Below, piece after piece: positions 3,001-56,403 of a stretch of 64,000 nt of DNA. The notes beneath the pieces are model-generated. The model saw nothing but the letters and a program-made list of their open reading frames with translations. It was not told the DNA's origin and did not search any database. Where the stretch lies: the NCBI GenBank assembly GCA_030295235.1, contig AP026162.1:124001-188000 (forward strand). The letters run 5' to 3'. The first letter of the stretch is position 1; each line of letters begins with the position of its first letter. The stretch is from Fistulifera solaris (Eukaryota). The position numbers and the translations under genes are program-made.

Positions 3001-6000
3001 GGTCAACAGTCTTTTCAAAATGCATACATTAGTGGGAGGCATTACGTGCACGTCTAATTGGTGATGACGGGCAACTTACCGGTACACACGAACAGCCCTC
3101 GTTTGGCCGATACGATGGGCTCTCGCCATAGCCTGCAAATCGTTTTGACTTTCGAAAAGAGTGTACCTGTCAGTCTCTGATCGCTTGATACGGTAAATAT
3201 GCGTCGTTCACTTACGGATTCCAGTCGCTGTCAAAGATGATTACTACATCAGCAGCAGTAAGATTCAAACCAAGTCCACCAGCTCTTGTGCTCAGCAACA
3301 TGACAAAGCGCTGAAAAGATTTCTTCGTAAATCTATCCACGGCGTGTGTGCGAGATGAAGATGAAGTTGAACCATCGAGTCTCTCGTAGCGATACTTCTT
3401 TATTCTTAATAGCTCCTCCAATAAATCAAGCACGCGGACCATCTGGCTGAAAATCAATACTTTGTGACCGCCGTCGAAAAGTTTTTGTAAAAGTTTTTCC
3501 ATTAGAACCATTTTCCCTGATGACTTTATCAGTTGCTCCCCAAAAAGGCGCGAATAGTCTACAATAGTCGGTTCTCCGTCATTGTCGGCAGCGCTCTTCA
3601 TCTTCGCCGCAGCCTCTGCCAGAATGCGGTCTTCTGCTCCTTTGATCAGATATGGGTGATTGCAGCACTTTCTTAATTCCATCATCACATTCATCAGGCT
3701 AGGAGCGTTACTAGGTTTTGCCCCTCGGAACAAAAAAGATGTGTTGCGCTCGTAGATCGCCTTGTAAAACGTCTTTTGAATCGGTGTTAGCGACACTTCC
3801 AGAATTGTTTCTTCTTTTGGTGGAAGTGATTTCTCTACATCCTCTTTTACGCGACGTAGTAAATACGGCTTGAGGAGCGAGTGGAGTTCATTGACTTGCT
3901 CTGCATCCGTCATTTCTCCAAACTTTTCAAGAAATGATTCCTTATCAGAGAAAACGTCAGGATTTGCAAAACTAAGGAGCGCCCATAGCTCCTCTGTCGC
4001 GTTTGCGATCGGAGTGCCTGTGAGCAGAAGGCAGAAATCGCGAGGCACATTTGCGAGCTGTTCAAACAAACGAGATTTTGAATTCTTCAAGCGGTGAGCT
4101 TCATCCACAATCAGTGCTTTCCACTTGATTTTGGATATCATATGTACGTCTTTCAGAATCACTTCGTAAGTTGTAATCAAAACATGGAACTTTGTGACAT
4201 GTTGCTTTTTCAGTTTTATGGCATCCGGACGGGGAATGAACTGGTCGGTGAAATAAAACTCGTGCGCTACCAAAAACTCTCTAGCGTCAGCTGATCCATG
4301 GTACAATAAAACATTCAAATCGGGTGCCCAAGACATGAGCTCAGATTGCCATTGACCAACCAAAGACAATGGCGCAACAATCAGGAAAGGAGCGCGGACC
4401 TGCGTTGCAGACTGAGTCTGTAATTCACGGAGAAACGCCGCTGACTGAATCGTTTTTCCAAGACCCATCTCGTCTGCCAAAATGCAGGATCTTTTGTTCC
4501 ACCAATTAAACAACAGCCAATTAACGCCTTCAAGTTGGTATCCTCTCAATCTGAACCCCTTACTAGTTCCATCGTCTTCGTCGTCGGCTGGTTTCAATAT
4601 TGTACCGTCATTATTCATAAGCAGTCTCGGTCGGCTTGAAATCCCATATTCCGCTGATTCTTGAAGTTTGCGGAACTCGCGAATATGAGGATGAGGTAGC
4701 TCTCTGTAGTCATTGGGTGGCTTTTGACGATACCAAAAGTCTTCGGCTTCGTCTACAGCATCGCGCTTGATGTCACGCCAATACTCCCACGTCATTTCAG
4801 TAAAAGGCATTCCTTTCCACTTGACAACATACCTTACATTGTCTTCTGGATCCCAAGGGATGTCGTTTTCTAAATCTACGTCCTTGACCAAATGTTGGTA
4901 AAGAGTCTCCTCGGACACTTTGATCGCTTCGGAATCTTTCTTTTGTAAAGTCTCTTGCTCCTCGATCAAATTTGCTGCGCGTTGTTTAGCTAGAACACTC
5001 ATGTCCATCTCATTTTCATCGCACGCGGTGATCCGTTCAATCTCCAAACAGTCTCCACCAAAATATTCTTCGGCAGGTTCCAAAAACTGACCATGCATCT
5101 GTGTTGTCGATTCACGATCCGCTAGCATTATCGATTTCCAATTCAGACCAATGCTTGCTTCTTGTTCCTGGTAATAGCGACGAATCTTGTTGCGAGCGGT
5201 ACTGTTGTTGGATGAATCCAGCCGTATCACGTCGTCAGCCCGTTCCCACGAACAATGCAAATGAGAACGTCCGCGCCACTTGATGAGAAGGACTTCCTCC
5301 TTCTCGTCCGTCACCTCATACGTCCAATGACTTGGGTCTTGTGCAGCTTTCAAAGCTTGCAGAACGGGACAATGTGTAGGGTTGATTCGCGACAACTCCA
5401 TCCGTTTCGCAGGATCCGTCCAAATCGATTTGGCCTGAAGCGCACGAGTCTGGAGAGCGAGCGCATCCGAGTGCTCAAACAATACGGTCGGTTCCGGGGC
5501 TTTGAGAGTGGTTTTCCGCCGCACTTTGAATCCACACACTTTGTCCAGTACCCATATATGCAGGAATGATTCGTTGGAGTACCATAGCGTCGAGGGTATT
5601 CCGGGCGGCGGGGCATCCGTTGCAGGATCAAGTGCGGGCACCACTGTGACCGAGACAGACGATCCTTCCATAGTTGGATCCAGAGAAGCCGCTTTTGGTT
5701 TTTTCGGAGGAAGCAGTTCCATCATGGCTTGCTCTTCTTCTGAATCGGTGTCTTCCAGATAAATGGAACGAGGACGTTTTTGATTTGTCGTCCGCACAGT
5801 GTTTGTGCGCGCGGCTCGGGATCGACTCGCAGCATCTATTGACAAAGAAGGCGAATCGGATCGAGGGAATCCTTCACTCAAATTCAATCCTTTCGTTCGT
5901 ATGACTAATATCAAAGGCTGCTCACTTTTCACACGAATCCGCTTGGGTGGTTTGCGTGGTTCTTCCTCCAGTAAAGAACTCGAATTCGAGGTACGTCTCA

Positions 6001-8613: not shown

Positions 8614-10673
8614 TTACAATTCCAATTGGTCCTTTCTCGGCTCTCCACTCAATAGTTTATCTTGCATTTGTAGCAATTCCGCGTATCGACCACCTTTCTG
8701 CACCAACTCAGTGTGGGTACCGTGCTCGACGACTTGTCCTTCGTGCATGACCCAGATCTCATCACAATCCTGAATGGTACTGAGGCGATGAGCAATCAAC
8801 AAAGTGGTTCGACCTTCAGCGGCTTGCTTGAGATTCTCCATAATATCCCATTCCGTTTGACTGTCCAACGACGAAGTCGGTTCGTCGCACAAAAGAATCG
8901 GTGCATTGGGTTTCAGAATGGCCCGCGCAATAGCCACCCGTTGTTTTTCACCTCCACTTAACTTCAAGCCACGCTCTCCAACTATTGTATCGTACTGGTT
9001 GGGAAACTGCATAATCGTGTCGTGTAAATGTGCTTTCCGTGCAGCTTCCATGACCTGTTCATGCGTTGCCTCCAAATTGCCATAGTGAATATTGTAGTAA
9101 ATGCTTTCATGGAAGAGCACCGTGTCTTGGGGAACTACCGCAATGGCCTTTTGCAGCGATGCGCGCGTCAATTCGGTTTGCACATTGTATCCACCGACTG
9201 TAATATTCCCTTGTTGGGGATCGTAAAACCGATAAAGGAGGCGTAGTATGGTACTCTTCCCGCAGCCGGAAGACCCGACAATGGCCACAGTCTTGCCTTG
9301 CGGAATTTCCAGCGTAGCACCTTTCAAAATGGCGCGATCTTGGCTACTGGGATACTGAAAATGAACATTCTCAAATCGAATGGTGTGACCCATTTGCAAC
9401 GGATTATATTCTCGAGCGCTCTCATGATCGGGAGCAATAGACGATGGTTTCGTATCCGCCAATTGGAACATGGCTTCCATATCAATGAGTGATTGTTTGA
9501 TTTCTCGATAAACGGAACCAATGAAAAGAGCGGAATCGACAATTGAAACAACAGTCCGTTCACCAAAACCAAATCTCCCACGGAAGCCGTTCCATCGACA
9601 ATTTGCTGGGATGTCAAGTACATGACACCACCCAATCCTGCACTGAAGATTGCCGCCTGACCGAAATTCAATAAGCTCAATGACGTTTGTGCCTGTAAAG
9701 CAGCTTTTTGATATCCGCGCAAACTCTCTTCGTAGCGTTCTCCTTCTCGTTTGGCGTTGTTAAAGTATTGCACCGTTTCGTAATTCAACAAACTATCGAC
9801 AACTCGACCGGATGCTTGACTTTCCAATCGATTCATATCCCGACGAAATTGTGTTCGCCACGATGTGACACCCACGGTGAAGGCCGTATACGCCGTGACG
9901 GTGCCCAATGCGACGATCGCTTGGGCACTCCCAAACTGATAGGCCAACAACCCGGTGACCAAGCTGACCTCCAACAAGGTCGGTATGACATTGAAGACAG
10001 CCGCATTGAGTAAAAATGAAATACTCCGCTGTCCCCGATCGAGTATTCGACTAAGTTGTCCGGTATTTCTCGACAAATGAAATTGCAAATCGAGTTGTTG
10101 ATGAACGTGATCAAAGACGGTGCGTCCCGTGTGTCGAATGGCATCTTGTGCGACAACGGCAAAAACCGCATTCCGGAACTCCTGAAATCCCACCGCCGCA
10201 GCACGACTCATCCCGTATCCCAGCAACAAAGAAATAGGGACGATGGCGACATCTCCCGTGGCTGCTGTAGTCGTCACATCAAGGGCATCGACCAAGTGCT
10301 TGAAAAGATAAGGAACTTGAATATTGACCGCTTTTCCAGCGACCATGAGCCCTAACGAAATGACTACTCGTCGCTTGTTCTCTTTGGAACGTTCAGGATC
10401 GTCTGTAGGAGTAATATTTTTGGAAAGCGTCTTCCATATTCTCCATTGCAAGTTTCGTTCCGAAGATGATTGTTCTTCAATCTCTGGTTTGATGACGGTA
10501 GACGGTTGCGTTGTATTTGTGGTGGTGGCTGAAAACGCGCGTGTTGCGTATTTTAAGATGCGAAAGTCGCCTGATAGCGTAGAACCAAGAGGTTGTCGCG
10601 AAGGAAGCGAACGCATCCATGAGAAAGAGGACGCACGGCACGAACGAATCGCTATCATTCTTGCTGTTTCCAT
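8614..10673 (-). CDS. ATM1: Mitochondrial ABC half-transporter, ATM1/ABCB7 type
   Basis: Arg/Ser-rich presequence, TM domain with DSLLNYETV, Walker [10 protein letters not shown], signature [17 protein letters not shown] and IAHRLST. The two ORFs join if one T is restored near 9525 ([11 protein letters not shown]). Confidence 0.92.
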
Positions 10674-10836
10674 AACTAATCTTTCAGTCCGCCAGTCAAT
10701 GAATCAGTTTGATCATTTCTTGTCTTTCGTATGCTTTATCGTTCGATTGCGTTCGCACAATTTTGAACAGTTGCTGAACATTGAGAGGAAATGCTTCGAT
10801 GCTGTTCCTTTTCGCAGTGCAGATTGCGGAGATAAG

Positions 10837-40022: not shown

Positions 40023-41360
40023 ATGATTGTTTTCTATCTGCTTTTCCTTCTCTTGGGTTTCTCATCGGCACAAACACCCGCAAAAGTCGGCGATCTTTAC
40101 CCCATTCAGATTCGTTCGAGCGGTGTCTCTGATATTGAGGGCGTCGAGACGCCTCTTGGTCAAACGTACACCCTCACTCATCCGGGCGCAACCTACATTG
40201 CCTTGCACTTTTCCAATCTAGCTCTCGCGAAAGACGACATCATTGAAGTGAGTGATGCGAACGGAGACCAAGCTTATACGCTCACTGGAAGCGGAAAAGG
40301 AGGCGGATCCCCCTTCTGGTCGCAACATATCAAGGGCGACACGATTGTGCTCAACATGCTGACTCGGGGAAAAAGTCGACGTAGTTTCTTTGAAGTAAAT
40401 GAATATGCTGCTGGCTTTGAATCCTTGTTTGAAACAATCTGCGGACTGGATGATAAAGTGAATGCCGTTTGCTACGCCTCCTCGTTCCCCACTGCGTACG
40501 ACAAAGCTCGTGCAGTAGCACGATTGCTCATCAACGGCAACAGTCTCTGCACCGGATTTCTCGTGTCGGGCTCCAATCACTTATTGACGAATAATCACTG
40601 CATTCAGAATGCAACTGTTGCATTGAATACCGATTATGAATTCATGAGCGAGGCTCCCTTGTGTTCATCTGCGAATGCACAGCTCGCGTATCCAGGAACG
40701 TTTTTTGACGGTGCTACATTCATTCAAACCAGTGCGGCGCTCGATTATACCTTGGTGCAGATTAACAGCGGAAATCCATCCAGTTTATATGGCTTCTTAG
40801 AGCTGGATAGTCAACTAACGGTTATTGGTGAACAAATTTACATCCCTCAACACGCCGGCGGTAAAGCAAAACAAATTGCTATCTATAGTACGGAAGCGGT
40901 TGATGCAACCGACGGCTTTTGTCAAATCAACAACGTGGGAAACACGGGCTGTGGTGGAAATCTAGGCAGTACAAATGTGTTTTACTTGTGCGACACGGAA
41001 GGTGGCAGTTCTGGATCCCCAGTTATATCCATGGTGACAAACAAGGTAGTGGGCCTCCATAAATGTGGCGGATGTTCAAATGGCAATGATGGTACAAGTG
41101 CCCATCTTGTTTGGAATCAAGTGGCTTCAATCCTATCTCCGGTAGCACCTGTCCCCGTCCCTGTGCCCGCCCCTTCACCGGTCCCTGTTCCTGTTCCCGC
41201 GCCGTTGCCTGTCCCCGTTCCAGTTCCTGTACCCATCCCTGTCCCCGTGCCTGCCCCGGTCCCAGCACCCGTGCCTTCGTGCTTGCCTCGAGACGGACGT
41301 TGCACGTCTGGGTCTGAGTGTTGTAGTGGTGTATGCAAGCGCAATGGTCGCTGCAACTAA
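40023..41360 (+). CDS. Secreted S1 serine protease, copy 6
   Basis: Intact ORF with catalytic triad motifs, a short PV stalk and a 6-Cys tip. Confidence 0.9.
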   Translation: MIVFYLLFLLLGFSSAQTPAKVGDLYPIQIRSSGVSDIEGVETPLGQTYTLTHPGATYIALHFSNLALAKDDIIEVSDANGDQAYTLTGSGKGGGSPFWSQHIKGDTIVLNMLTRGKSRRSFFEVNEYAAGFESLFETICGLDDKVNAVCYASSFPTAYDKARAVARLLINGNSLCTGFLVSGSNHLLTNNHCIQNATVALNTDYEFMSEAPLCSSANAQLAYPGTFFDGATFIQTSAALDYTLVQINSGNPSSLYGFLELDSQLTVIGEQIYIPQHAGGKAKQIAIYSTEAVDATDGFCQINNVGNTGCGGNLGSTNVFYLCDTEGGSSGSPVISMVTNKVVGLHKCGGCSNGNDGTSAHLVWNQVASILSPVAPVPVPVPAPSPVPVPVPAPLPVPVPVPVPIPVPVPAPVPAPVPSCLPRDGRCTSGSECCSGVCKRNGRCN

Positions 41361-41545
41361 GGCTTCTGTCTTGAAAGACTCATACGAAAACATGAGTCGT
41401 CTGCCAGGATGAAATGATGGTATGTATGTTTTTAATTGATTCGTTACTTCTAAATCGGATATCCGTTAAACACGAAACTTTCAAGCAAAATTGTGTCCAC
41501 ATAACTTAAATTCTACATCAAAGCAAGTTATGGCGAGTAGGAGGC

Positions 41546-43088
41546 TCACTTGGGGTCCATGAGGGACGCTAGGGCAGCGCCAGTTGCAACCGCGGTACCA
41601 ACAGTAGCGAAAAAGAATGGCGTCCGCTTTTTCTTTTGTTCCTTTCTCCGTGCTTCTTCCATCTCTTCGTGTTTCAACTTGTCGCGTTGGTTCTTTTCGG
41701 CCATTTGTTTCGCGAATTCTTCCGGTAATACGGACGAATGGTGATGCACTATTTTCCATACTCCATTTTCGCACGCGTAAATGAACGAGTATCGAGCAAC
41801 GGCTTTGGAGCCATCCGCTCCCATGGTGAATTCATAGATCCCCGTATCTTGAGCCCAATTGGCTCCGACGGTAATTCGTCCTCCTAGAATCTCTGCTCGC
41901 GGAAGAAACTCCAAAAATGTGTCATAATAGTCTCGAATTTCGCCGGGCGTGATACGCGGTGGCCCGGATATCGTTGGAATAAAGCTCGCTTTAGAGGAAT
42001 ACAGATCCATGACTCTGGAGGAATCCAGTGTCGCCAGAGCCCTGTTCCATTGATCAAAAAGTGCCCGTACTTGTTGTGGATTGATCCGATTGGCGACAAC
42101 ACCATCTTCTGGCATGATTGACGAATGATGATGCGCAATTTTCCATCGCCCGTGGGTATATACATAAATGAACGAGAATCGGCCCCGTAGCCTCTCACCC
42201 GTAGCTTGGAACACGAATTCGTATATTCCACTGTCTTTGGCCCAATTGGTACCGATTTGGACGTTCGAGCGGAGAATTTGACATTGTGGTCGCAGACGGA
42301 GAAAAGCACGATAATAGTTGCGTATGCTGTTCGGATTGGTCAAAGGCGCATCGGATGCCGTCGGAAGTACGACGGCGTCTTCGGTATATCGATTCAACAC
42401 AGCTTCTGCATCTCCTGTCATCAATGCATCATTCCACAAATTAAATAGATTGCGAACTTGAGCCTCCGAAATGCGTTGCTCGACGACGACTGATTCGGGC
42501 ATGAAGGATGAATGATGATTGAGAATCTTCCATGTTCCGTTTTCTTTGACGTAAAGAACGAATAACGAGCCATCATGCTCGTCCCATCATCTAGGAATTT
42601 AAATTCATAGATTCCTACATCCTTGGCCCATCCATCTCCTATTTTAATCCGTCCTCCGACAATTTCGGCTTGCGGTTTCCGACGCAGAAAAATGTCAAAA
42701 TAGTCGACAATACTTTGTGTGGTATTACGAGGCTCGTCGCGAATGGTAGGAATGAGAATGGCTTCACTAGAATAGCACGCCGCAACCTTTTTTGGGTTTC
42801 CGGTAGCCAACGCTTGATTCCATTTATCAAATAGCTTTCGAATTTCTTCGGGAGAATTTGGTTTGACTTTTTCCACCAATCGGGCATGTTGAAGGATGCT
42901 AAGCTACCAAATGAATTCTCCGTGACAGCACTGTATATTGTAGTGACGGGAGAATTTTGTGTTGCGAAAGAACGACCGTGCATCCATGATTGTGTTATTT
43001 GTGACGGCGCTAAGAACGCCACGGTAAATTGAACCGTCCACAGAACGCAAGAAGCACAGCAAAGCGAATAAGACAGCGAACTTTTCAT
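41546..43088 (-). CDS. Iota-class carbonic anhydrase-like (COG4875/CaMKII association-domain fold), 3 domains, with bipartite presequence and hydrophobic C-tail
   Basis: Three domains with LF..WN.AL.T, PT and NHHSS/HHHSS/HHHSS. Signal peptide ends TVA-FLAP. 1-bp frameshifts near 42872 and 42554. Confidence 0.85.
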
Positions 43089-43298
43089 CTCGAACTCGTC
43101 AATGCGCGACTGTTTAATTGTGTTTATTCTTTAAATCATAAACGTTTTGGGCGTGAAAGGCATATCAGGAAGAGCAGATCGCTTCCAAAGTGACACCTTT
43201 CGTTTTCTTTCTCAATCTCCCTCCGACCTCCGAATAAACTGCAAGCAAAGAACTGCACCGCCCCGCCGCAACCGAAGCGACGTTCTCGCTTCTCGTCC

Positions 43299-43579
43299 AC
43301 GTCATCAGGAGCCAATACCGTTCAGACACAGGCCTACGGACAGACCATCGCTTCCGCGCAGTGCGCACGAACTTGAAGAACGGAAATCGACACTTTCGCT
43401 ACTTTAAATCCTATACTCTTGGAATTGAGAATGCAAAAGAATGTAAACGTTGTATGACGTCAACCCCCCATAAAATCACAGTCGAACCACGTCACACCTC
43501 TCTTGGTTTCACGTGTGATCCTACGTGCGTTCTGGTACTGAGAGCACGAGCTGACGTTCGGCGACGTAAAGCATGACGT
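43299..43579. promoter_or_regulatory. Cluster of TGACGT/ACGTCA (CRE/CCRE-like) motifs in a bidirectional promoter
   Basis: ACGTCA 43299, TGACGTCA 43455, ACGTCA 43489, TGACGT 43552, TGACGT 43574, plus CACGTG 43510. Confidence 0.65.
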
Positions 43580-43657
43580 CCGTTGTTTTTTGCCTCCTCA
43601 CGCGTCTCATAAATTTCATTTTTGTGACTTTATTCTCGCAACATCACATCCATCAAG

Positions 43658-45572
43658 ATGCGCTTCTCTGCTATCGCCCTTGCCAGTGCTGCTCTCCTCT
43701 CCAGCGAAGCGTTTGCCTTTGTGCAACACCCTCGCGCGGTCTCCAAGGCGGCTATTCACTCCGAAGCCGCCTTTGTTTCCCCGTCCTTCTTACGCCAAGA
43801 TCTGGGAACCTCTCTTTTTGTCGGCCGTCGCTGAAGACGAAAAGACAGTTGTCAAGTCTGGTAAGGCTGAACTCACCAAGGATGAAGAAGAGATTCGTTC
43901 TCTCTTTTCTCTCTGGAACAATGCCCTTGCCACGGGAGATTCGCGTCTTGTTGCGGCGCGTTACGCCAAGGATGCCGTCCTTCTTCCGACCGTGTCCGAC
44001 ACTCCGCGCACGACGCCCGAATTAATCAAGGACTACTTTGATGCTTTCTTGAAGCGAAAGCCTCAGGGTGTCATTACCGAGGGATACATCAAGATTGGTG
44101 ATGGATTTGCCAAGGACTCGTAAGTTCACTCACTTGTGTGTGTCGTCGAAAGCCGTCGTCGGTCGTTTACGTGCGTCATGACATCTAACACTCGACTTCT
44201 TTCTTTCAATCAACGACAGTGGTATCTACGAATTCACAATGGGTGATAACAACAGCAAGGTAGAAGCCCGATACACCTTTGTCTACGTCAAGGAGAATGG
44301 AAAGTGGAAGATCTTGCACCACCACTCTTCGGTCATGCCGGAAGGCATCAGCGTCGCCCAGAAAATCACCGAGAACGAAGTTCGAGGACTCTTCAACTTG
44401 TGGAACGACGCCTTGGCGACTTTGGATTCGGATGCCGTGGCCAGCCGATACGCCAAGACGGCCGTCTTGCTCCCCACCGTGTCGGACACGCCCCGCACCA
44501 GCTACGAGCTCATCAAAGACTACTTTGACAACTTCCTCAAACGCAAGCCTCAGGGTGAAATTTTGGAGTCCTACGTCCAAATTGGTACCAACTGGGCCAA
44601 GGACAGTGGTATCTACGAATTCACCATGGGTGACACCGGCGACAAGGTGAAGGGTCGTTACTCCTTCATCTACGTCTACGAAGACGGTCAATGGAAGATT
44701 TCGCACCACCACTCCTCGGTCATGCCCGAAGGCATTACCGTCGGACAAAAGATTGAAAAGGAAGAGGTTCGCAAGTTGTTCAACTTGTGGAACGATGCTT
44801 TGGCCACCAAAGACTCCGCCAAGGTCGCGGCTCGTTACTCGAAAAACGCCGTCCTTCTTCCCACCGTCTCGGACAAGCCCCGCACCAGCAACGAATTGAT
44901 TGTTGACTACTTTAACAACTTTTTGAAGTTGGAGCCCCAGGGTGTCATTGATGAGGGTGAGATCATTGTTGGAACCAACTGGGCACAGGATGCTGGTATC
45001 TACACTTTCACTTTGGGAGCATCGGGCAAGAAGGTCCAGGCTCGTTACTCGTTCGTTTACGTCTACGAGGACGGTGAGTGGAAGATCTCTCATCACCATT
45101 CTTCGATGATGCCCGAGAAGGTGACTGTCGCTGAACCCATCACCAAGGAGCAAGTCCGTGACTTGTTCGGATTGTGGAACGACGCTCTCGCCACCAAGGA
45201 CCCCAAGAAGGTCGCTGCCCGCTACTCCAAGAACGCTGTTCTTCTTCCCACCGTGTCGGACACTCCTCGTACTTCTCCTGAATTGATTGAGGACTACTTT
45301 GAGGCCTTCTTGAAGAAGGAACCCCAGGGTGTCATTGACAGTGGAGATATCACCATCGGAGCCAACTGGGCCCAGGATGCTGGTATCTACACCTTCACCA
45401 TGGGCAATGACGGATCCAAGGTTCAGGCCCGATACTCTTTCGTTTATGTATTTGAAGATGGTGAATGGAAGATCTCTCACCACCACTCCTCGGTCATGCC
45501 GGAGGCTTTGCTAAACCCCCAAAGGCCGAAGCAAAGAAAGAGGAAGTTGCGGAAGAGAAGGTTGAAGCATAA
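43658..45572 (+). CDS. Iota-class carbonic anhydrase, LCIP63-like, 4 domains, plastid-type presequence
   Basis: Presequence MRFSAIALASAALLSSEAFAFV; intron 44120-44219; four domains each ending HHHSS(V/M)MPE; frameshifts near 43820 and 45520; strong codon bias. Confidence 0.92.
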
Positions 45573-45704
45573 TCAAGTTATATCATGCATATAATTTTGT
45601 CCTAGTATCATCGTGAAAATTTAGTGTTTATTTACTAGCTAGAGAAAAGCTAAGTGTATTTGTCTGGTCCGTACTAAATCTACCACATCCAGTTTGCCTC
45701 TGTC

Positions 45705-47351
45705 GATCAATTTCCTACGAGCTCTAGGTAGACGATCGAAGTGTTGCAACTTTGTACTGCTTCATGTTTCAGAATCAAATCAAGCTCGATTATTGTTTCA
45801 TGCAATGTATTAGCGATGTTGGGCAAAGTATTGTTGACATTGGCGTCGAAAAGATGCGAAAAATGGTGTGATCGAAATTGCGCAATATCCGGGTATCCCC
45901 TCTGTCGATAAATTTCCTTACCAGAGCTACGTGAAATTACGTAGGCATTCGAAGCGTTGCATCGTTCGTTCAATAAATGTTTTGTTACTCGCTCAAACGC
46001 GATTATTGCTTCTCGATACGATGCGAATGCGGTTTGCAAGAATACGCTGACTTTTCTGCACTGGAGAGCCATGAATTGGATGATGGAGAAAAAGAGATTA
46101 TCCGGGTACCCCTGCAGAGATAAATTTCCTACGGCGGCTACGTACTCTGCGTGTAGACATTGGAAGCGTTGTATCTTTTTACTTTTTCATGTTTCACTGT
46201 CAAATCAAAGTCGATTATTGTTTCCTGTCGTGCATAGGCGATGTTGGGCAAAGTATTGTTGACATTGGTGTCGAAAAGATGCGAAAAATGGTGTGATCGA
46301 AATTGCGCAATATCCGGGTATCCCCTCTGTCGATAAATTTCCTACGAGAGCTACCGGTAAGTGAAAATACGTAGACATTCGAAGCGTTGCATCATTCGTT
46401 CCATCAACGTTTTGTTTTCAAATCAATAGCGATTCTTGCTTCTCGATACGAAACAAATACGATGCGCAAGCAAACGTCGACATTTAGGCACTGTAGAGTC
46501 AAGAATGGGATGACGGCGAAAAACAAAATATCCGGGTACCCCTGCAGAGATAAATTTCCTACGGCTGCTACGTACTCTGCGCGTAGACACTGGAAGCGTT
46601 GTGTCTTTGTACTGTTTCATGTTTTAGTGTCGAATTAAGTTCGATAATTGTTTTATGCAATGTATTAGCGATGTTGGGCAAAGTATTGTTGACATTGGTG
46701 TCGAAAAGATGCGAAAAATGGTGTGATCGAAATTGCGCAAAATCCGGGTATCCCCTCTGTCGATAAATTTCCTTACCAGAGCTACGTGAAATTACGTAGA
46801 CATTCGAAGCGTTGCATCATTCGTTCCATCAACGTTTTGTTTTCGAATCGAAGGCGTTTATTGCTTCCGGATACGAAAAAAATACGATGCGCAAGCAAAC
46901 GTCGACATTTAGGCACTGTAGAGTCAAGAATGGGATGACGGCGAAAAACAAAATATCCGGGTACCCCTGCAGAGATAAATTTCCTACGGCGGCTACGTAC
47001 TCTGCGCGTAGACACTGGAAGCGTTGTATTTTTTTTGCTTTTTCATGTTTCACTGTCAAATCAAAGTCGATTATTGTTTCATGTCATGCATACGCGGTGT
47101 TGGGAAAAGTATTGTTGACATTGGTGTCGAAAAGATGCGAAAAATGGTGTGATCGAAATTGCGCAATATCCGGGTATCCCCTCTGTCGATAAATTTCCCT
47201 ACGAGAGCTACCGGTAAGTGAAAATACGTAGACATTCGAAGCGTTGCATCATTCGTTCCATCAACGTTTTGTTTTCAAATCAATGGCGATTTTTGCTTCC
47301 GGATACAATGTCAATACGGTGCACAAGAAGAAGTTGACTTTTCTGCACTGA
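45705..47351. repeat. Satellite with ~427-bp unit (two diverged ~213-bp halves) and an ~855-bp higher-order period
   Basis: ATCGAAATTGCGCAA.ATCCGGGTATCCCCTCTGTCGATAAATTTCC at 45871, 46296, 46726 and 47151; half-unit TATCCGGGTACCCCTGCAGAGATAAATTTCC at ~46099, 46529 and 46954. Confidence 0.95.
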
Positions 47352-47361
47352 ATGAATACAC

Positions 47362-48858
47362 ATGACAAGCACGAAGAAAACACACGTTTTATATGTCGAT
47401 CATCAAGGCCATCCGGCTCCCTTAACGGAATGTTTTCACGCCACTGCGTCGCGTCGGCTTTCTTCGACACTGCAGCGGTTTCCTCCGTCTTCCGTCACTT
47501 CCATCGATAGTGCTTACTGCCCGAACTGCTTGACTTCGCAAGATCTTGTTCAATATTGCAATCGCTGTCAGCGTTGTTCAGTTTGTGTGCACTCGATGCT
47601 GCAAATTATGGTCCGTGACAATCACTGTGTGTACGAGTGTGCGACGTGTCAATGGCGCAGCGCTATTTCGGTACCCGTGGTCGAAAATGCGAGTAAAGTA
47701 GAAATAGCACGAGCCGCAGAAGATTTATGCTTACAAGTAAAAGAAGCGAGACAAGTGGCGGATCACAAAGATTTATTTTCCGAACGAAAGATACGTCGTG
47801 GAATTCAGTCACTGCGTTCGTTTGATCGAGACAAGGATTGGTCGTTGGAGATTCTCGAAGCAACGCTGGAAACGAAACGAAAAGAAAAGAGTATTCGTCC
47901 GGAAGAATCAAAAGTGGAGAGTAGTTTATCGATTCAACGCCTCAATCTAGAAGACGATGAGGATAGGACACCGACAAAGTTCGAAGGTACGATAGGAGCA
48001 TGGCAGTGGCAGGCCTTGGTTCGTGGTGTACATCGCAATGATCTGCTACCCTTACCGGTTCCTTTACGTGCTCGTCGAAGTCGTCGGTGTCGTGCTGAAC
48101 TTGCCTCGGGTCGTCCCGGAATTTTGGTCAAACCGAAAGTCAATCCTTTGGAGGGCGATAGCAGTTTACGAACCGGGCACGGTCAATGGTGGAGAAAGGT
48201 ACGCCAGTCAACTCAAGGTGAATTATTCTTTCAACTATGCAATATCTCACATGGCTTTTCATTCATTTTTTAGGATTCGAGCGCCATTCACGTAATACCG
48301 CGTGTACGCGTGGTAAAGACGGTCTACCAGGAAGCATCCATCCATTTTCTATTGCAGGTTACGAACCCCACTTTAGGTCTAATTCGAATGCGCTGGGGCC
48401 CTAGTCCTTATTGTGGAGAAGAGGATTGGGATGGAAATGTGACGTTGTTGTTACAGCACCTATTGGTTGACACCATAACACAGGAGCATTGGAACGTACG
48501 ACTGCTCGAAGCGGAAGAGAGGCAATTCGAGACAACCAAGATCATAGAGCTCGCGTCAGCCGAAGATACCTTGCTGGAATTAAATCACAATAGTGGTAAT
48601 CAAGTTCCAGAAGCTATATCCCGTTGGAGTGGTACCAGCGAACAGACTCAGTGGATCGGTCAGCAGCAACAAGACGCCTGGCTGGAAGTTGTCGTTGAAA
48701 TCAAATCAACAATAAAGAACAATGAGCATTTGGCGATTCCACTTCGGATGCAAGTCGAGCTTGGCAATGGTTCATGGGAATCATCGCTGATCGAGCAGGA
48801 TACTTCTAAAGAAACAGATTGGGTCGATATTGACGTGGTATTGACGTGGGAGTCATGA
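47362..48858 (+). CDS. DCTN4: Dynactin subunit 4 (p62)-like
   Basis: SIDSAYCPNCL, CNRCQRCSVC, CATCQW, PLRARRSRRC, ILVKP and VTNPT. Intron 48199-48273 joins the ORFs in frame. Confidence 0.75.
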
Positions 48859-48916
48859 GAGGCTTACTGTGGAACACGATGTTGATGTTTATTTCATGCA
48901 TTGAATTTTAGTTTGA

Positions 48917-50860
48917 TTATTCAATTTCCTCCATCGAATGATCATCAGGCGCGTCAATATCGCTGTCAGTCTTCTTTTCTTCATCGTGAATTGTGTGCCC
49001 CTCCGCTTCGCAATCGTTTTCTTCCTGGTCATGGTAATTGCTCGAGACTGGACTAACTGATCCCAGGATGTGGACCTCCACGTGCTCGTTCTCTACTTTT
49101 GAGTTGGACGTGAGCGCAGAATGCGAACGCTTGCTTCCGGACCTTTGCAGTTCCATGGACAAAGTCATGGAGGCAATGACCTGATTTTGGGCCGTCACAT
49201 CATCCTCACCGCAATCGCCATGATCCCCTTGCAAAACTGTGGACAAGGCGTATTGTTCACTACGTCCTGGTCGTAATAAAGCCACAAGGCTTGATTGGTT
49301 TTTGTCTTCGTCGACATCTAGCCATACCTTAACCACAAAGGATGAAAGATAATTATCGTCGAACGCCCAACTATCATAATGCAAGACCAAGTTCGATAAT
49401 GTGAGAGCCAATCCCGGACTAACGTGGAATTTGTGAGGCTCGCCTTCTCTGAGAATAGCAGTTGCTACTCCGGGAGCATCATAATGATGGATCCAAGGTT
49501 GGAGACAGGAATTGGCCAATATTTCTGCTCTGTCATTGCACCGATGGTATCGATAACGTTTCATTTCAAAGTCCGTTAGAAGGCATTGGTCGAGTGATTT
49601 GGTAATATCGCCTTGTTTCAAACCGATTCCAATGAACACAATTTCTTGTCGACGGTCACCATACGCGCCTTCAAATTTGGCTCGAATGCGTTGAATGTCA
49701 GCTTCGTCATCGACGCCCCATTCATTTTTAGGCAAGGTAACATACCAAGGAGTCATTGGGTGGATCATAACAAGTCTGCCACTATGAGCCCATCCACCGA
49801 TGTTTGCGTCGCGGCCAGCAATCCAACAGAAGCCTTTGGAGCGAATGATATGACCATACGTGCCACACATGTGTGTGAATCGGTTATCAAGCTCGCTCAT
49901 AAAGCTTGGCTGGTGGATTCTGTCACTATTCCAATCATGTGAAAAGCACAGAATTTGATTTACCCACTGTGCCAGACGACCAGAATGAAATGGTTTGCGA
50001 GCGCGATACACGAACGATGTAATGCCATATTCTTCGGATTCACTGATCATAGTCTTGTCTGATTGCATGGAGACCAACCAGCCAGGACTTTCTTCTGCAT
50101 CCTTCATGGTGAACATTCTTGTGTTAAGAATGAGATTAAGGTCGACGACGCCAAACTTCGTAGGGATGACGGTGGCTTTGGGGTTAAGTGTTCGAATCAT
50201 TTCTTTTGTTGCTTGACAGTCTTGTTCGGATACCAGATCCGTTTTGTTTAGCAGTATGACATTGGCAAACTCCACTTGCTCAATCAACAAATCAGCAATA
50301 CTCTTTTCGCCTTCTTCATCTGAGTCTTCCCCGAGACCATCCTTGAACTCATCTTTGAATCGTTTGAGGGAAGAGAGATGACGAGGGAAATCATTCGTGT
50401 CAATAACCGTGACACAAGTATCCAGTCGGGCCACACTCCAAAGCATCTTGGATGGATCGTCGGCGAGTACAGTTGTTTCAGGGTCTGCACAAAATCCTTC
50501 CGCGACTTGTTGGGGTTCGGCAATGCCCGTTGATTCAATCAAGATGTAATCAAACGTACCGATTTCTCGGATACGATTGATTTCACGGATCAAATCCCCT
50601 CGCAAGGTACAGCAAATGCACCCATTGGACATGGAAATCAGCTCCCTCTTCGTTTGCACGAGGCCACTTTGTTCAACTACAGCAGCATCAATATTGAGTT
50701 CGGCCATATCATTCACAATCACGGCAACTTTCATGTTATGGTCGTGCCACTTGAGGATATACTGCAGTAGCGTAGATTTTCCGGACCCTAGAAATCCCGA
50801 GATGACTGTTACAGGAATACGGACATCCTTTGCTTCCACTTGTCTATTCGTTTCCATCAT
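48917..50860 (-). CDS. COG0523/CobW-family G3E GTPase metallochaperone with a C-terminal nucleoplasmin-like extension
   Basis: GFLGSGKST, GCICC (CxCC), IESTG, NKTD and CobW_C motifs RSKGFCW and GDRRQEIVFIG, followed by ~190 extra aa with an acidic tail. Confidence 0.9.
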   Translation of the reverse strand: MMETNRQVEAKDVRIPVTVISGFLGSGKSTLLQYILKWHDHNMKVAVIVNDMAELNIDAAVVEQSGLVQTKRELISMSNGCICCTLRGDLIREINRIREIGTFDYILIESTGIAEPQQVAEGFCADPETTVLADDPSKMLWSVARLDTCVTVIDTNDFPRHLSSLKRFKDEFKDGLGEDSDEEGEKSIADLLIEQVEFANVILLNKTDLVSEQDCQATKEMIRTLNPKATVIPTKFGVVDLNLILNTRMFTMKDAEESPGWLVSMQSDKTMISESEEYGITSFVYRARKPFHSGRLAQWVNQILCFSHDWNSDRIHQPSFMSELDNRFTHMCGTYGHIIRSKGFCWIAGRDANIGGWAHSGRLVMIHPMTPWYVTLPKNEWGVDDEADIQRIRAKFEGAYGDRRQEIVFIGIGLKQGDITKSLDQCLLTDFEMKRYRYHRCNDRAEILANSCLQPWIHHYDAPGVATAILREGEPHKFHVSPGLALTLSNLVLHYDSWAFDDNYLSSFVVKVWLDVDEDKNQSSLVALLRPGRSEQYALSTVLQGDHGDCGEDDVTAQNQVIASMTLSMELQRSGSKRSHSALTSNSKVENEHVEVHILGSVSPVSSNYHDQEENDCEAEGHTIHDEEKKTDSDIDAPDDHSMEEIE

Positions 50861-51068
50861 GATGTATTTTCTCTGGAGTGAAATTTTGTGAATGGGAGAG
50901 AAAGTGTTGATGGTTTTGCAAAAGAAAAACAAATGCAATAGGCCATACCTGATACCTTTCTTTGGTCTAACTTTTACCTTTTGACGTTAGGGGAAGTTGA
51001 TCTAGGCTGCTGTATATAAACTTCTGGCTAAAAGAAAAGGTCGGAAGCTTTAAAAGGGCTTTTTAGTT

Positions 51069-51195
51069 AAATCGTATTAGACCTTCCTATGCACCTTGTC
51101 CTCAAGCTGTTTCGTTTTCGGCCTTGCTCTATAATAAAATCGTATTAGACCTACCTATGGTACCTTGTCTCTCTAGCTGTTTCGTTTTTGGCCTA
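51069..51195. repeat. Local direct duplication of ~57 bp
   Basis: AAATCGTATTAGACCT.CCTATG..ACCTTGTC...AGCTGTTTCGTTTT.GGCCT occurs twice, about 69 bp apart. Confidence 0.85.
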
Positions 51196-51374
51196 ATTTT
51201 TTTTTCCAAAAGAGCAAACGTGAAAAAGGCCACAATCCAGCAACCTGCAAGGCCATAACGCCATCCAAGATTCGTATAGGTTAGTCCCACTCGAGATTTG
51301 GCGACAAGCAAGAAGCAAGTGCCAAGTGCCAAGTCGAAGTTGCGATCCGGTATTTAGGCGCAAAGATCCATGGG

Positions 51375-51493
51375 TGACGTCAGATCTTTGAAATAACACG
51401 TCACACATGCGACACGAGGTCCACAGTAGGAAGTAAAAGTAAAGCACGCCGAATGCGAGGTCTCTTTGTAGTTTCGTGACGTGCCTGTGACGT
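51375..51493. promoter_or_regulatory. Cluster of TGACGT/ACGTCA (CRE/CCRE-like) motifs
   Basis: TGACGTCA 51375, ACGTCA 51398, TGACGT 51477 and TGACGT 51488, 110-225 bp upstream of the ATG at 51600. Confidence 0.65.
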
Positions 51494-51599
51494 ATGCGTA
51501 CGTGGTTGATCGTTGGTCTGATTATTCCGATCGTTCAAAAAAGCATTCATTCCTTGCATCACAAAAACGAAAAGCGCCGTTTCATTCATCCTTATCACA

Positions 51600-52969
51600 A
51601 TGTTCACCGCTCGTGCTGCCAAATCTCTTCCTGTGTTGCGACAGATTCAGTCCAAGCAGCTTTACGCCGCTGGATCTAACTTGCGACCCTTTTTCAGCTT
51701 CTCTGGCGGTGACAAGGGACCGAAAGACGACGAAGTCCGAGCTCTTTTCTCCGTCTGGAACAACGCTCTCGCTACAGGAGACTCCGCTACCGTTGCTTCC
51801 TGCTATGCCAAAGATGCCGTCCTTCTTCCTACCGTGTCGGATACTCCTCGTACTTCTCCGGCTTTGATCAAGGACTACTTTGATGCCTTCTTGAAGCGAA
51901 AGCCTCAGGGTGTCATTACCGACGGATACATCCGATCGGGAGAAGGATTCGCCAAGGACTCGTAAGTACTTTATAAGTAGCTCATGTAAGAGCGAAAAAT
52001 CTGTCATACTCACACGCTTCTGTTTCTCTTTCGTTCAGTGGTATCTACGAATTCACCATGGGTGACACCGGCGACAAGGTTAAGGCCCGTTACAGTTTCG
52101 TGTACGTCAAAGAGGATGGAAAGTGGAAGATCTTGCACCACCACTCCTCTGTCATGCCCGAAGGTATTACTATCGGAAAGAAGATTGAAAAGGACGAAGT
52201 TCGCAGCTTGTTCAACTTGTGGAACGACGCTCTTGCCTCGGGAGACTCGGCCAAGGTGGCCGCTCGCTACTCAAAGAACGCCGTCCTTCTCCCCACTGTC
52301 TCCGACACACCCCGCAACAACAACGATTTGATCGTTGACTACTTCAACAACTTCTTGAAGTTGAAGCCCCAGGGTGTCATCGATAGTGGCGACATCCTCA
52401 TCGGAACCAACTGGGCCCAAGATGCTGGTATCTACACCTTCACTTTGGGTGCGAACGGCAAGAAGGTCCAAGCTCGTTACTCTTTCGTCTACGTTTACGA
52501 GGACGGCGAGTGGAAGATCTCCCACCACCATTCTTCTATGATGCCTGAAAAGATCGTCGCACCTGAACCCGTCACCAAGGAACAAGTGCGCAGCTTCTTC
52601 AACTTGTGGAACGATGCCCTAGCCACTCTTGACCCCAAGAAGGTCGCGGCTCGTTACGCAAAGGATGCTGTCCTTCTTCCTACCGTGTCGGACATCCCCC
52701 GCACTTCTCCTGATTTGATCGAGAACTACTTCGAGGCTTTCTTGCAAAAGAAGCCCCAAGGTGTCATTGACAGTGGTAATGTCAAGATCGGAGCCAACTG
52801 GGCGCAAGATGCTGGTATCTACACTTTCACCATGGGCAACGATGGATCTAAGGTGCAAGGTCGATATTCCTTCATCTACGTATTCGAGGATGGTGAGTGG
52901 AAGATCTCTCACCACCACTCCTCGGTCATGCCGGAGGCTTTCTTGAACCCCAAGGCCCCTGCTCAGTAA
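51600..52969 (+). CDS. Iota-class carbonic anhydrase, 3 domains, mitochondrial-like presequence
   Basis: N-terminus MFTARAAKSLPVLRQIQSKQLYAAGSNLRPFFSFSG; intron 51962-52038 at the same codon as in the 43658 gene; three HHHSS domains; no frameshift. Confidence 0.92.
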
Positions 52970-53194
52970 ACGTTCGCACGACTCTGACAACTAGCCATAA
53001 TCATCTGTCTAAAGTGCCTTATTTATTTTTGTAACGAATCGTTGCAACTATAATTGTAGGTGTCATTATTCTTTCTGATCAAAAGATCATCGTGTCCACA
53101 TTTCTGTGCCTTTAATAATGCGTAATCCATTGTGTTGTTTTGTCGGTAACACTCTCTAATTATTTCCTCTACTAATTAGTGTTTACCTACGAAA

Positions 53195-55980
53195 TCAAGG
53201 TGTCCATGCTAGTGCAACATCGTAGACTTTCTGATAATCGTCCGCGTATTCCACATGCAATCCTTCCTTCAAGTATTCGGGAATTTCGTCGAAGTCGCGC
53301 TGGTTAGCTTGTGGCAATATCACACAAGTTATTCCGGCTCGACGAGCCGCCATAATTTTTCACGGATACCTCCCACTGGGAGCACCTTTCCTGTGAGACT
53401 GATCTCCCCAGTCATGGCCAAATCATTTCGAACTGGTTTACCCGTTGCCAGCGACAGCAACGATGTGACCATTGTAATCCCAGCCGATGGACCATCTTTG
53501 GGAGTTGCTCCTTCCGGTACATGCAAATGGATATCCGCCGTATCGAAATAAGAATTTGCCGGATCAATTTCGTGCAGCCTTGCACGCGCCACAGTGTAAG
53601 CTATGTCGGCACTTTCTTTCATAACGTCTCCGAGTTGTCCGGTTACCTTAACGTGACCGCCTCCTCGTGGCTTTCCTTCGGCGTCAGGCGCACGTTGAAT
53701 GCCCTGCGTCTCAATATACAAAGCTGATCCACCCATTGACGTGTATGCAAGACCCATCACGATACCATTCGGCAAAGGTCCGTCTTGATACAGACGATCG
53801 CTTGTGAAGATTTGTTTGCCGACGTAATCGACCAGATTGCTCTCATCAATCGTCCATGAATCTGACTTTCGCTTTGACTTTTCCCGTAGTACAGCCCCCT
53901 CTTGCTCAGCAACAATCTGCAAAGCCAGTTTGCGAGTAATTCGGTCAATATACTTGGCAAGATTACGAACACCAGCTTCACGGGCATACCACCGAACCAA
54001 ACTCTGAATTGCTTCACGGGAAATGGCAACACCCTCGGGAATTCCTGGTGCATGAACGTATTTTTCAAGTGGCGTCGTTTTGATATTTGCTCCGTCCGGA
54101 TCAGAATCGTCCATTTTCTTCTCTTCCGAATGGAGTTCGTCAATAGTCTCGCTTTCCTTTTCTACCATTAAGCCGCTCTCTTTGAATGATTTGGGGACCA
54201 AGTAGTTTTCAGCGATCGTCACCTTTTCAGGAAAGTCGTATCCAGGCAGCCGAATAATTTCCATACGATCGAGCAGAGGTCCAGGAATGCGATCGAGCTC
54301 ATTGGCTGTACAAAGAAAAAGAACCTGACTGATATCCACTGGAACGTCTAAGAAGTGATCCCTGAAAGTAGAATTTTGGCTCGGATCCAATACTTCTAAC
54401 AAAGCACTGGCTGGATCACCGCGAAATCCCGACCCAAGCTTATCAATTTCATCAATGAGAATCACAGGATTACTAGTTCCGACTGTTTTCAAACTTTGAA
54501 TGACTTTTCCGGGCATGGCGCCGATGTATGTTCTTCAAGGAACGTTAGAGACAATAAAAAGATGACAGGTAGATATAGAAACGCACCTTCGGTGACCTTT
54601 GATCTCGCTCACATCACTCAAACCACCCACACTGAAGCGGTAAAACTCCCGGTTGAGAGCTTGCGCGATCGACTTTCCAATACTGGTTTTACCGGTGCCC
54701 GGAGGCCCCGCCAAACACAAGATTTTGCCTTCGACGGTCCCTTTCAGCTTTCCAATGGCAATGAATTGTAAGATAGCATCCTTGACATCTTCCAATCCGT
54801 AGTGATCTTGGTCTAGTACGCGTCTCGCTTTGGCGAGATCAAAATTCTCTTCGCTCATGACGCCCCACGGAACTCCCAACAACCAATCCAAATAACTGCG
54901 CGTGACCTGATACTCGGGTGAATTCTTTTCGAGCGTACTGAATTTTTCCATTTCTGCTTGAATGACATCGTTAACTTCCTTGGGAACTTTATCACCATAT
55001 TCTTCCAACTTCTTTTGATACTTTTCAATCAAAGCATCCTTATCATCCCGTTCCATCCCCAATTCCTTCTTGATGGACTTGAGTTGTTCCATCAAAAAGT
55101 ATTTTCGCTGCGTCTCGGTCATTTTCTCTTCTACTTTTTGATTGATTTCTTTTTGTAACTGACTGACGGACAATTCCCGATTGAGCAAGACCAACGCCAA
55201 ATGCAAGCGCTGTTCCGGATCGCGTTCCGCCAAGACGGCCTGCAAATCCGCGGACGCCCCGCCACTGGCACTGATGCTGGCCGCAAAGTCCGCCAATTTG
55301 AACGGATCATTCGCATCAAAGCGCATGGGAAACAAATTGAGTGATTCACGAAAGAGTGGATTCATTTGTGCAATTTGTCGAATGGTGCTGATGATTTCGT
55401 TCGATAAAGCCCGGATGGTGATATCTTGATCGGGTTGGGGTGCATATTCAAGTCGGGGCCAGTGTTTGACATTGACACGGAGGGGAGGACCCAATTCATC
55501 AATCGAAAGCAAATCGACACGACGATGCGCCAGAAGAGTCAAGGTGGCGGTCGTTTCTTCTTCGACTTTGTGAAAGCGTTGTATTTCGGCGAGAGTTCCA
55601 GTTTCGTACAACTCGAGAGGATCGGTTATGATTTCGGGTACTTCGACTACAGTTCCGTGTCCTTCGGTTGGTCTGCGTAGAAAGCAGGAAAGAAAAGCTC
55701 GATCTTGATTCCACAGTTCTTCCATGGCTTGAATGGTCGGCGGATCCGTCAATGTAATGGAAGTGATGAGACCGGGAAAGATGGGGCGTGTTTGCAGCGG
55801 TAGACCCAGTGTATGCGGCATGCGAGGTGCTGCTTCACCAAAGGGGATTTTCTCCGGTACAACAACGACTTTGTTGTCGTCGGAGGAGGAAGACGAGGAA
55901 GAAGAGAACCATCGAGGAAGAGGCGCTACACGAGGCCGTCGACGAGCGGATCGCACCGCCATGAATGAGGCCGCTATCAT
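53195..55980 (-). CDS. LONP1: Mitochondrial Lon protease
   Basis: Arg/Ser presequence, [21 protein letters not shown] across intron 54533-54586, IDEIDK, catalytic PKDGPSAG and [10 protein letters not shown]. One 1-bp frameshift near 53357. Confidence 0.93.
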
Positions 55981-56403
55981 TTCGATGGGCGACTAATTAT
56001 GAAGCGCAGCGACCTTTTCTTCTTAAGAAAATAGATGTTACAACTTCCAGGAAGATGGCTTAGCGACTGAGCAAATGCCCTTTGACGCGCATCACAAAAG
56101 AACATGAACGAATGCGTATGAACCATTCGCGGTCGATCCTCTTCCCTTTATTTCGCGATAATAATGCGCCTCATTCTCCGGGTTCTATATGTAAAAACCT
56201 GTCCGACGAAGAGTTACTATGAAGCTTTTAGTCAGTTCAAGGAAGTCTCATGACAACATCCAGTCTTAGCGAAAACGGACAACACTTTGACCTAATAGTA
56301 AATTCGGAAATGCAGCCTTGGGGATGATTATCAACATAGTAAGACGAGGGATGCAGTAAAACAGATCTCATATTCACAATCATGGTTCATGACTGAAATT
56401 CGA

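Follow-up and report, generated by a model that had tools for sequence, protein, structure and literature searches.

Three iota-carbonic anhydrase paralogues with different predicted addresses and motif-dense shared promoters in the diatom Fistulifera solaris

Zinc is scarce at the sea surface. Iota-carbonic anhydrases (iota-CAs) are reported to rank with the most abundant and most strongly expressed carbonic anhydrases (CAs) of ocean diatoms (PMC8119650). The stretch of Fistulifera solaris DNA analysed here (the window; 64,000 nucleotides, positions 124,001 to 188,000 of contig AP026162.1) contains three iota-CA paralogues, referred to as A, B and C, within 11.4 kb (41546-52969; all positions are window coordinates), which raises the question of whether such close neighbours with different ends deliver one enzyme to several compartments under shared control. 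A preliminary description of the locus had proposed a co-regulated, zinc-sparing carbon-concentrating module sending the enzyme to plastid stroma, a membrane and mitochondria. On balance we lean slightly towards a reading of this kind: three intact iota-CA paralogues with three addresses (stroma, plastid membrane and mitochondrion) behind shared promoters dense in CO2-related motifs.

The locus is real, and its three iota-CA genes lie where the preliminary description had placed them. Matches to the Pfam family PF08332 (CaMKII_AD, corresponding to COG4875) cover every piece of A, B and C, with E-values of 5e-63 for exon 2 of B, 6e-47 for exon 2 of C and 6e-26 for A, and form three tandem domains in A, four in B and three in C. 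The HHSS motif (as defined in PMC8132391) closes all ten domains, as had been noted, in the form HHHSS in nine of them and NHHSS in the first domain of A. Furthermore, every domain contains a Thr, a Tyr 15 residues on, a His 62 residues beyond the Tyr and a Ser two residues after the His, which is the spacing of the active-site residues Thr62, Tyr77, His139 and Ser141 reported for tp-iota-CA of Thalassiosira pseudonana (PMC8395977). Domain, motif and catalytic residues thus support the original family assignment, and A, B and C are predicted to be active COG4875-type iota-CAs of the LCIP63 family. LCIP63 is described as a zinc-inhibited protein of the plastid that is induced at low CO2 (PMC6776030). 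After mending of assembly errors (see below), A and B encode proteins of 514 and 604 amino acids (aa), respectively; C encodes 430 aa.

Predicted addresses of A, B and C

Targeting classes were assigned by rules of our own, using an 8-residue hydropathy peak, small residues at positions -1 and -3 and Phe at +1 of the putative cleavage site. A first signal-peptide threshold (10-mer hydropathy of at least 2.0) misclassed obvious plastid leaders and was replaced. By these rules B starts with a signal-peptide-like leader with Phe at +1 (SEA/FAF, the slash marking the putative site), and the hydrophobic leader of A falls into the same class (Table 1), as do 85 of the 158 multi-domain relatives, a set in which 37 proteins have no usable N-terminus. 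The 30 residues after the site contain nine Ser/Thr, no Asp/Glu and one Lys/Arg in A, and four Ser/Thr, one Asp/Glu and four Lys/Arg in B. The C-terminus of A consists of a 35-residue charged stalk, the residues KKKR, a 21-residue hydrophobic segment and three more residues; hydrophobic C-terminal segments also occur in the relatives P0249, P0257 and P0274. B lacks a hydrophobic tail. C has neither a hydrophobic leader nor a signal peptide, and its residues 1-37, which include an RPF/FS motif, comprise five Lys/Arg and no Asp/Glu. Leaders like that of C, with R-x-aromatic followed by Ser, are found in P0008, P0081, P0248 and L054, the last being a short contig that resembles a transcript and has a stop in frame ahead of its Met. 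These heuristic classes bear out what had been claimed for the three genes, namely different targeting features, with a signal peptide, Ala-Phe site and hydrophobic C-tail in A, a signal peptide and Ala-Phe site on a soluble protein in B, and a basic presequence without signal peptide in C.

The combination of a putative bipartite diatom plastid leader with a soluble form suggests that B is probably stromal, like LCIP63. A combines a plastid-type leader with a charged stalk and a putative hydrophobic anchor at the C-terminus; it would probably be fixed to a plastid membrane, the catalytic domains facing the positive (stromal) side. The absence of a signal peptide together with a mitochondrial-type presequence would place C in the mitochondrial matrix, where it could turn respiratory and photorespiratory CO2 into bicarbonate. 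Given that iota-CAs do not need zinc, A, B and C together would keep three places provided with CA activity under a shortage of CO2 or of zinc. We infer compartments, membrane topology, response to CO2 and zinc, and enzyme activity of the three proteins from such features, and a zinc-sparing role at this locus is suggested by analogy with Phaeodactylum, for which zinc sparing by iota-CA has already been published (PMC9010474; preprint 10.64898/2026.05.21.726966; Avilan 2026 via PMC13579330) and Pt-iota-CA is reported to rise with ZCRP-A/B at low zinc (PMC9010474).

Shared promoters and history of the cluster

A and B are arranged head-to-head, and C is head-to-head with a gene for a COG0523 (CobW) GTPase. 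Both intergenic regions are rich in TGACGT and its reverse complement ACGTCA (Table 1). These two motifs and TGACGC have been described as CO2-cAMP-responsive elements of PtCA1 and PtCA2 and as targets of PtbZIP11, and low-CO2 induction of PtBST1 was predicted from such both-strand arrays (PMC7378808, PMC11142338). TGACGT is not enriched over the whole window, with 36 matches against 37.4 expected. The two shared promoters, however, contain 12 of these matches, or 10 of the window's 34 distinct sites, in 1308 bp, and the density of 7.6 sites per kb is about 20-fold that in the rest of the window (0.38 per kb). Nowhere else in the 64 kb does a 600-bp stretch contain five or more TGACGT/ACGTCA sites. 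When the 34 sites were placed at random, 0.7% of trials reached a maximum of at least five per 600 bp, and none of 20000 gave two such stretches apart from each other.

The 600 bp upstream of A and B contain five sites each, those upstream of C four and those upstream of the COG0523 gene three. Among 15 other gene starts in the window, 12 have no site in the same interval, two have one and one has two. The five distinct sites of B lie 79-359 bp before the ATG; of the sites of C, four lie 107-225 bp before its ATG and another lies 618 bp before it. The sites occur on both strands, both TGACGTCA palindromes of the window fall in the two promoters, and TGACGC has no copy in either promoter region. 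A common origin of the B and C promoters was rejected, as the upstream regions do not align, and the motif clusters are thus not a copied promoter.

The motif is also enriched upstream of iota-CA genes elsewhere. Among 80 iota-CA loci found in metagenomes, 18 are 4.4 kb or longer and fall into 10 distinct groups. The 10 distinct loci contain 19 sites in 5.9 kb of upstream sequence (600 bp before the projected start codon) and 37 in 111 kb elsewhere, a 9.7-fold enrichment (binomial p 1.6e-11), and eight of them have at least one upstream site. In the two richest loci, seven sites (L033, 3201-3410) and four sites (L017, 1989-2274) lie within 300-370 bp before the iota-CA start codon; the remainders of these loci (14.8 and 4.9 kb) have three sites each. 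The clustered sites point to a shared control of A, B and C.

Domain identities between the paralogues (C1 to B1 78%, C2 to B3 87% and C3 to B4 84%; A1 to B1 58%, A2 to B2 61% and A3 to B4 57%) fit a four-domain ancestor, of which B would have kept all domains, whereas domain 2 would have been lost from C and domain 3 from A. In a set of 612 domains from the proteins collected, those of B and C are mutually nearest after their F. solaris homeologues, which suggests that B and C are a recent, lineage-specific duplicate pair. The intron of C sits at the same place in domain 1 as the intron of B, and A is intronless. In many metagenome loci (L037-L045, L078, L079, L033 and L064) a long open reading frame (ORF) starts just past the GIYEF motif of domain 1; as this start coincides with the place of the B/C intron, the intron position looks old and lost by A. 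The domains of A have no close relative in the same set of 612 (best match 62%). A cluster-representative search with A gave no representative above 62% identity, and a word-index search gave only A itself (P0391) and P0392. The latter comes from a Fistulifera-like metagenome contig and shares 399 of 446 aligned residues with A; its gene model is interrupted ahead of the tail.

Weighing the readings

Several points weigh against three addresses under joint control. The targeting classes come from simple rules and not from trained predictors. The tail of A is only moderately hydrophobic (Kyte-Doolittle 19-mer mean of 1.66), and no A-like protein was found outside the Fistulifera group, the next matches being about 55-57% identical. 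The leader of C has a modest maximum hydrophobic moment of 0.30, and C may have a missed 5' exon. TGACGT is a general core of cAMP-responsive elements and bZIP sites, and a CO2 response of these particular sites is inferred. The metagenome enrichment was counted before projected, not verified, start codons and drops to 5-fold (p 5e-4) once L033 (seven sites) and L017 (four sites), the two richest loci, are left out. Finally, none of the 18 longer metagenome loci has a COG0523 match, and only one (L064) has a second set of iota-CA domains.

C might instead be cytosolic, or plastid-targeted through a missed signal-peptide exon, and the cluster would then serve one or two compartments; we regard this as rather unlikely, though it has to be reckoned with. 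Besides the low hydrophobic moment and the rule-based class, it draws on the lack of an RNA contig over the 5' end of C and on a short M-initiated hydrophobic ORF in another frame at 51494. That ORF, however, overlaps the motif cluster and has no Ala-Phe cleavage site, and the database model of the homeologue of C (P0095, FisN_1Lh074, which matches C at 423 of 430 residues) begins at the same Met. In addition, the four other iota-CAs named above, including L054, have similar basic, acid-free R-x-aromatic-Ser leaders, and a mitochondrial iota-CA, Bn50950, is reported from a chlorarachniophyte (PMC8132391). We retain the mitochondrial matrix as the probable address of C.

A plain expansion of the family without joint control is unlikely in our estimate. 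In that case the genes would be leftovers of local duplication and the TGACGT motifs generic bZIP sites (light, stress, housekeeping). At least 10 plastid-targeted iota-CAs have already been reported for F. solaris (PMC6723447), B and C probably arose by a recent duplication, TGACGT is not over-represented window-wide, and other diatom loci did not yield the cluster. Here, 17 of the 18 longer metagenome loci have neither a second iota-CA gene nor a COG0523 gene beside the iota-CA gene, but their flanks are short, and the evidence against conservation of the cluster is accordingly weak. The remaining locus, L064, carries two consecutive sets of three iota-CA domains on one strand (1295-3835), as two tandem genes or one six-domain gene. 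What speaks against plain expansion is that the sites are concentrated about 20-fold in precisely the two iota-CA promoters, that outside the motifs the promoters of B and C cannot be aligned, and that unrelated diatom iota-CA genes share the upstream enrichment. The co-regulated module of the preliminary description is upheld in part. Family membership, differing targeting features and sequence evidence for shared control through two motif-dense promoters all stand, whereas 'module' is too strong in the evolutionary sense, with B and C as lineage-specific duplicates and the three-gene cluster absent from the 18 short-flanked metagenome loci in which synteny, proposed earlier as a check, was sought.

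It is very unlikely that the domains belong to NTF2/SnoaL-like proteins whose function is not CO2 hydration. The same stretches do match the Pfam families SnoaL_3, DUF4440 and SnoaL_2. However, all domains retain the HHSS motif and the four residues critical in COG4337-type enzymes, in solved structures of which mutation of the equivalent residues is reported to abolish or lower activity (PMC8132391), and they closely resemble diatom proteins of the group reported to contain the assayed LCIP63 (PMC8119650). The main exon of B shares 65-73% identity with four-domain proteins from many diatoms, Thalassiosirales included; none of the protein matches to B was identified by name as LCIP63. Matches in the PDB were 3h51 (E 1e-33) and 7c5x, annotated as 'iota-carbonic anhydrase' (E 4e-16). 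One four-domain relative, P0082 (658 aa), with 71% identity to diatom iota-CAs and a long leader of chloroplast type, is assigned to the green alga Bryopsis sp.; it could be a case of transfer between lineages or of contamination.

The raw assembly contains two frameshifts in A and two in B, the latter after the leader and before the stop, and all four lie at short homopolymers. The polishing proposed in the preliminary description was carried out with contigs from four public runs aligned to 41000-53500: X1, from the same organism code; X2, a wetland metagenome; and X3 and X4, which we guess to be RNA. Relative to the window, the X1 and X2 contigs have one additional base at 42552 and one at 42867 in A, and in B one base fewer at 43779 (likewise X4) and an additional C at 45515. 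Both genes are thereby restored to intact frames. Mended A is letter-for-letter identical to the database protein P0391 (FisN_1Hh070) of F. solaris, and mended B ends in an acidic soluble tail resembling that of P0006, which matches B at 440 of 444 residues; the basic C-terminus of B in the raw window is an artefact. The frameshifts are homopolymer assembly errors, which fits the reported sequencing of the F. solaris genome by 454 (PMC8329260). One X3 contig joins an exon directly to 44220, the spliced form of a B-type intron. Contigs of X3 and X4 cover B, parts of 47.7-48.9 kb and 50.6-51.0 kb, and a Lon protease gene; none lies on A or C, which is uninformative as to whether A or C is silent. 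That A and B are pseudogenes with real frameshifts, as the disrupted frames of the window would have it, can practically be dismissed, since each break is a one-base homopolymer difference read otherwise by X1 and X2 (and X4 for 43779), mended A equals a deposited protein, the catalytic residues are kept in all domains, and RNA-like contigs with a spliced junction lie on B.

By their locus tags, P0095 and probably also P0006 appear to come from the other subgenome of allodiploid F. solaris, and the locus probably lies on chromosome 1 of the 'H' subgenome. A fifth one-base difference to the reads was seen at 53355 in the Lon gene, also at a short homopolymer. Split ORF pairs occur in the Lon gene (53332-54534 and 54538-55992) and in an ABC transporter gene (8617-9759 and 9327-10703); they fit 454 homopolymer errors or introns, and other genes of the assembly probably need mending.

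Neighbouring genes and known systems

The mapped features are listed in Table 1. The satellite that separates B from the next gene lies outside the CA unit, and contig depth over it is 100-2000 compared with about 20 around it (runs X1 and X2), which marks it as a high-copy repeat of the genome. Six tandem trypsin-like serine peptidase genes (PF13365) occupy 20124-41360 on the forward strand; the last (40023-41360) has a signal-like start, a long Pro-Val/Pro-Ala tail and a Cys-rich knot at its end. No other recognisable genes of the CO2-concentrating mechanism (CCM) were found in the rest of the 64-kb window.

Table 1. Features mapped at the iota-CA locus (window coordinates)
Feature	Position	Strand	Details and evidence
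iota-CA paralogue A (FisN_1Hh070)	41546..43088	-	ATG 43088, stop 41546; ORFs, Pfam PF08332, mended model equal to P0391
Leader of A, aa 1-24, hydrophobic, ends TVA then Phe (TVA/FLAP)	43017..43088	-	hydropathy/cleavage heuristic
Hydrophobic C-terminal segment of A, aa 491-511, putative membrane anchor	41558..41620	-	Kyte-Doolittle
A/B head-to-head promoter, 569 bp	43089..43657		5 distinct TGACGT/ACGTCA: 43299, 43455-62 palindrome, 43489, 43552, 43574
iota-CA paralogue B	43658..45572	+	ATG 43658, GT..AG intron 44120-44219, stop 45570-45572; ORFs, PF08332, contig mending
Tandem satellite, unit ~213 bp, higher-order ~427 bp, ~7.5 units	45697..47308		repeat search
Intervening gene, weak dynactin-p62-like match	47362..48858	+	PF05502, E 0.007, below cut-off
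COG0523 (CobW) GTPase, 647 aa, head-to-head with C	48917..50860	-	Pfam PF02492, PF07683; P0121 identical
COG0523/C head-to-head promoter, 739 bp	50861..51599		5 distinct TGACGT/ACGTCA: 50982, 51375-82 palindrome, 51398, 51477, 51488
iota-CA paralogue C	51600..52969	+	ATG 51600, intron 51962-52038, stop 52969; ORFs, PF08332, homeologue P0095

The COG0523 protein matches PF02492 (1.7e-49) and PF07683 (1.9e-16), its CxCC motif reads GCICCT, and it ends in a nucleoplasmin-like C-terminal domain followed by an acidic tail. An AlphaFold2 model of the last 217 aa (35-row alignment) is a beta-sandwich with a mean pLDDT of 75 and a core above 90. The top Foldseek matches were HDT1/2, FKBP43, NLP, NPM1 and NO38, and a nucleoplasmin fold is present in all ten first-ranked chains and in 22 of 24 among the matches listed (best E 1.2e-5, TM-score to target up to 0.88). 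The Pfam NPL profile gave 13.9 bits for the window protein and 27.7-28.8 bits (cut-off 23.4) for three of four relatives scanned, and the combination of CobW with a nucleoplasmin-like domain (PF17800) also occurs in stramenopile relatives. The C-terminal domain is thus predicted, from the model, to adopt a nucleoplasmin-like fold. No named Phaeodactylum or T. pseudonana protein was among the 120 matches listed for the COG0523 protein, and no paper pairing 'nucleoplasmin' with 'CobW' or 'COG0523' was found within the library searched.

In Phaeodactylum, the COG0523 protein ZCRP-A is reported to rise together with iota-CA at low zinc (PMC9010474), and CBP1/ZNG3 of Chlamydomonas, a nuclear WW-domain protein of the CobW family, is reported to bind the CCM regulator CCM1/CIA5 (PMC12891040, PMC13368412). 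The COG0523 protein might, by extension, be a nuclear nucleoplasmin-domain metallochaperone that couples zinc status to CCM expression, a stramenopile counterpart of CBP1/ZNG3-CCM1, and might be switched on jointly with zinc-free CAs for stroma, plastid membrane and mitochondrion by the CO2-cAMP-bZIP pathway. We offer this as a speculation and hold it to be distinctly improbable in this full form; the CobW-nucleoplasmin neighbour is best regarded as a separate new lead.

The plastid location, low-CO2 induction and zinc inhibition of LCIP63, the many iota-CAs of F. solaris and zinc sparing by iota-CA were already known. New here are a physical cluster with three different predicted addresses, including a putative membrane-anchored form, and two motif-dense divergent promoters together with the same motif enrichment in other diatoms. 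The passage of inorganic carbon over the plastid envelope and the position of LCIP63 at the plastid periphery have been described as open questions (10.1101/2023.10.26.564148). The locus may provide three natural variants of one enzyme, predicted to be soluble in the plastid, membrane-anchored in the plastid and probably mitochondrial. With these variants behind two compact promoters with countable motifs, localisation, promoter dissection and cross-talk between zinc and CO2 become directly testable. F. solaris is a transformable, oil-producing diatom.

Compared with LCIP63/tp-iota-CA of T. pseudonana (PMC6776030, PMC8395977), the paralogues share the repeated COG4875 domains, HHHSS and the Thr, Tyr, His and Ser residues, and B also the four domains; A and B further resemble it in a predicted signal peptide, with a putative transit peptide behind it. 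A differs in having three domains with a charged stalk and a putative hydrophobic anchor, C in having three domains and no signal peptide, and the locus in holding three genes within 11.4 kb. Six LCIP63 loci, three of them predicted to be plastid-located, are reported for Nitzschia inconspicua (PMC8329260), likewise a raphid pennate diatom with paralogues in different predicted places; the available text of that source reports no clustering, membrane-anchored form or promoter analysis. The iota-CAs of Bigelowiella natans (PMC8132391) are also multi-domain repeats, with a plastid (Bn86287) and a mitochondrial (Bn50950) paralogue. However, they belong to a different superfamily (COG4337 instead of COG4875) and a different algal lineage, and the available text describes no gene clustering.

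The two promoters resemble CCRE1-3 of PtCA1 and PtCA2 and the PtBST1 promoter (PMC7378808, PMC11142338) in having tight TGACGT/ACGTCA arrays on both strands, at most a few hundred bases from the start codons of CCM genes, but belong to iota-CA and COG0523 genes of another diatom and lack TGACGC copies. Like CBP1/ZNG3 of Chlamydomonas (PMC12891040, PMC13368412), the protein encoded next to C is a COG0523 GTPase that carries an additional protein-interaction domain of a nuclear kind at its C-terminus and is linked to CCM genes. In CBP1/ZNG3 the extra domain is WW (reported to be restricted to green algae), whereas here it is nucleoplasmin-like, and the CCM link at this locus consists solely of gene adjacency and a shared promoter. 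Another known case is Pt-iota-CA of Phaeodactylum tricornutum, a member of the same enzyme family that rises with ZCRP-A, a COG0523 protein, under scarce zinc. For P. tricornutum a single copy is reported (PMC8329260), whereas F. solaris has three copies here with different predicted addresses, one of which is physically adjoined by a COG0523 gene.

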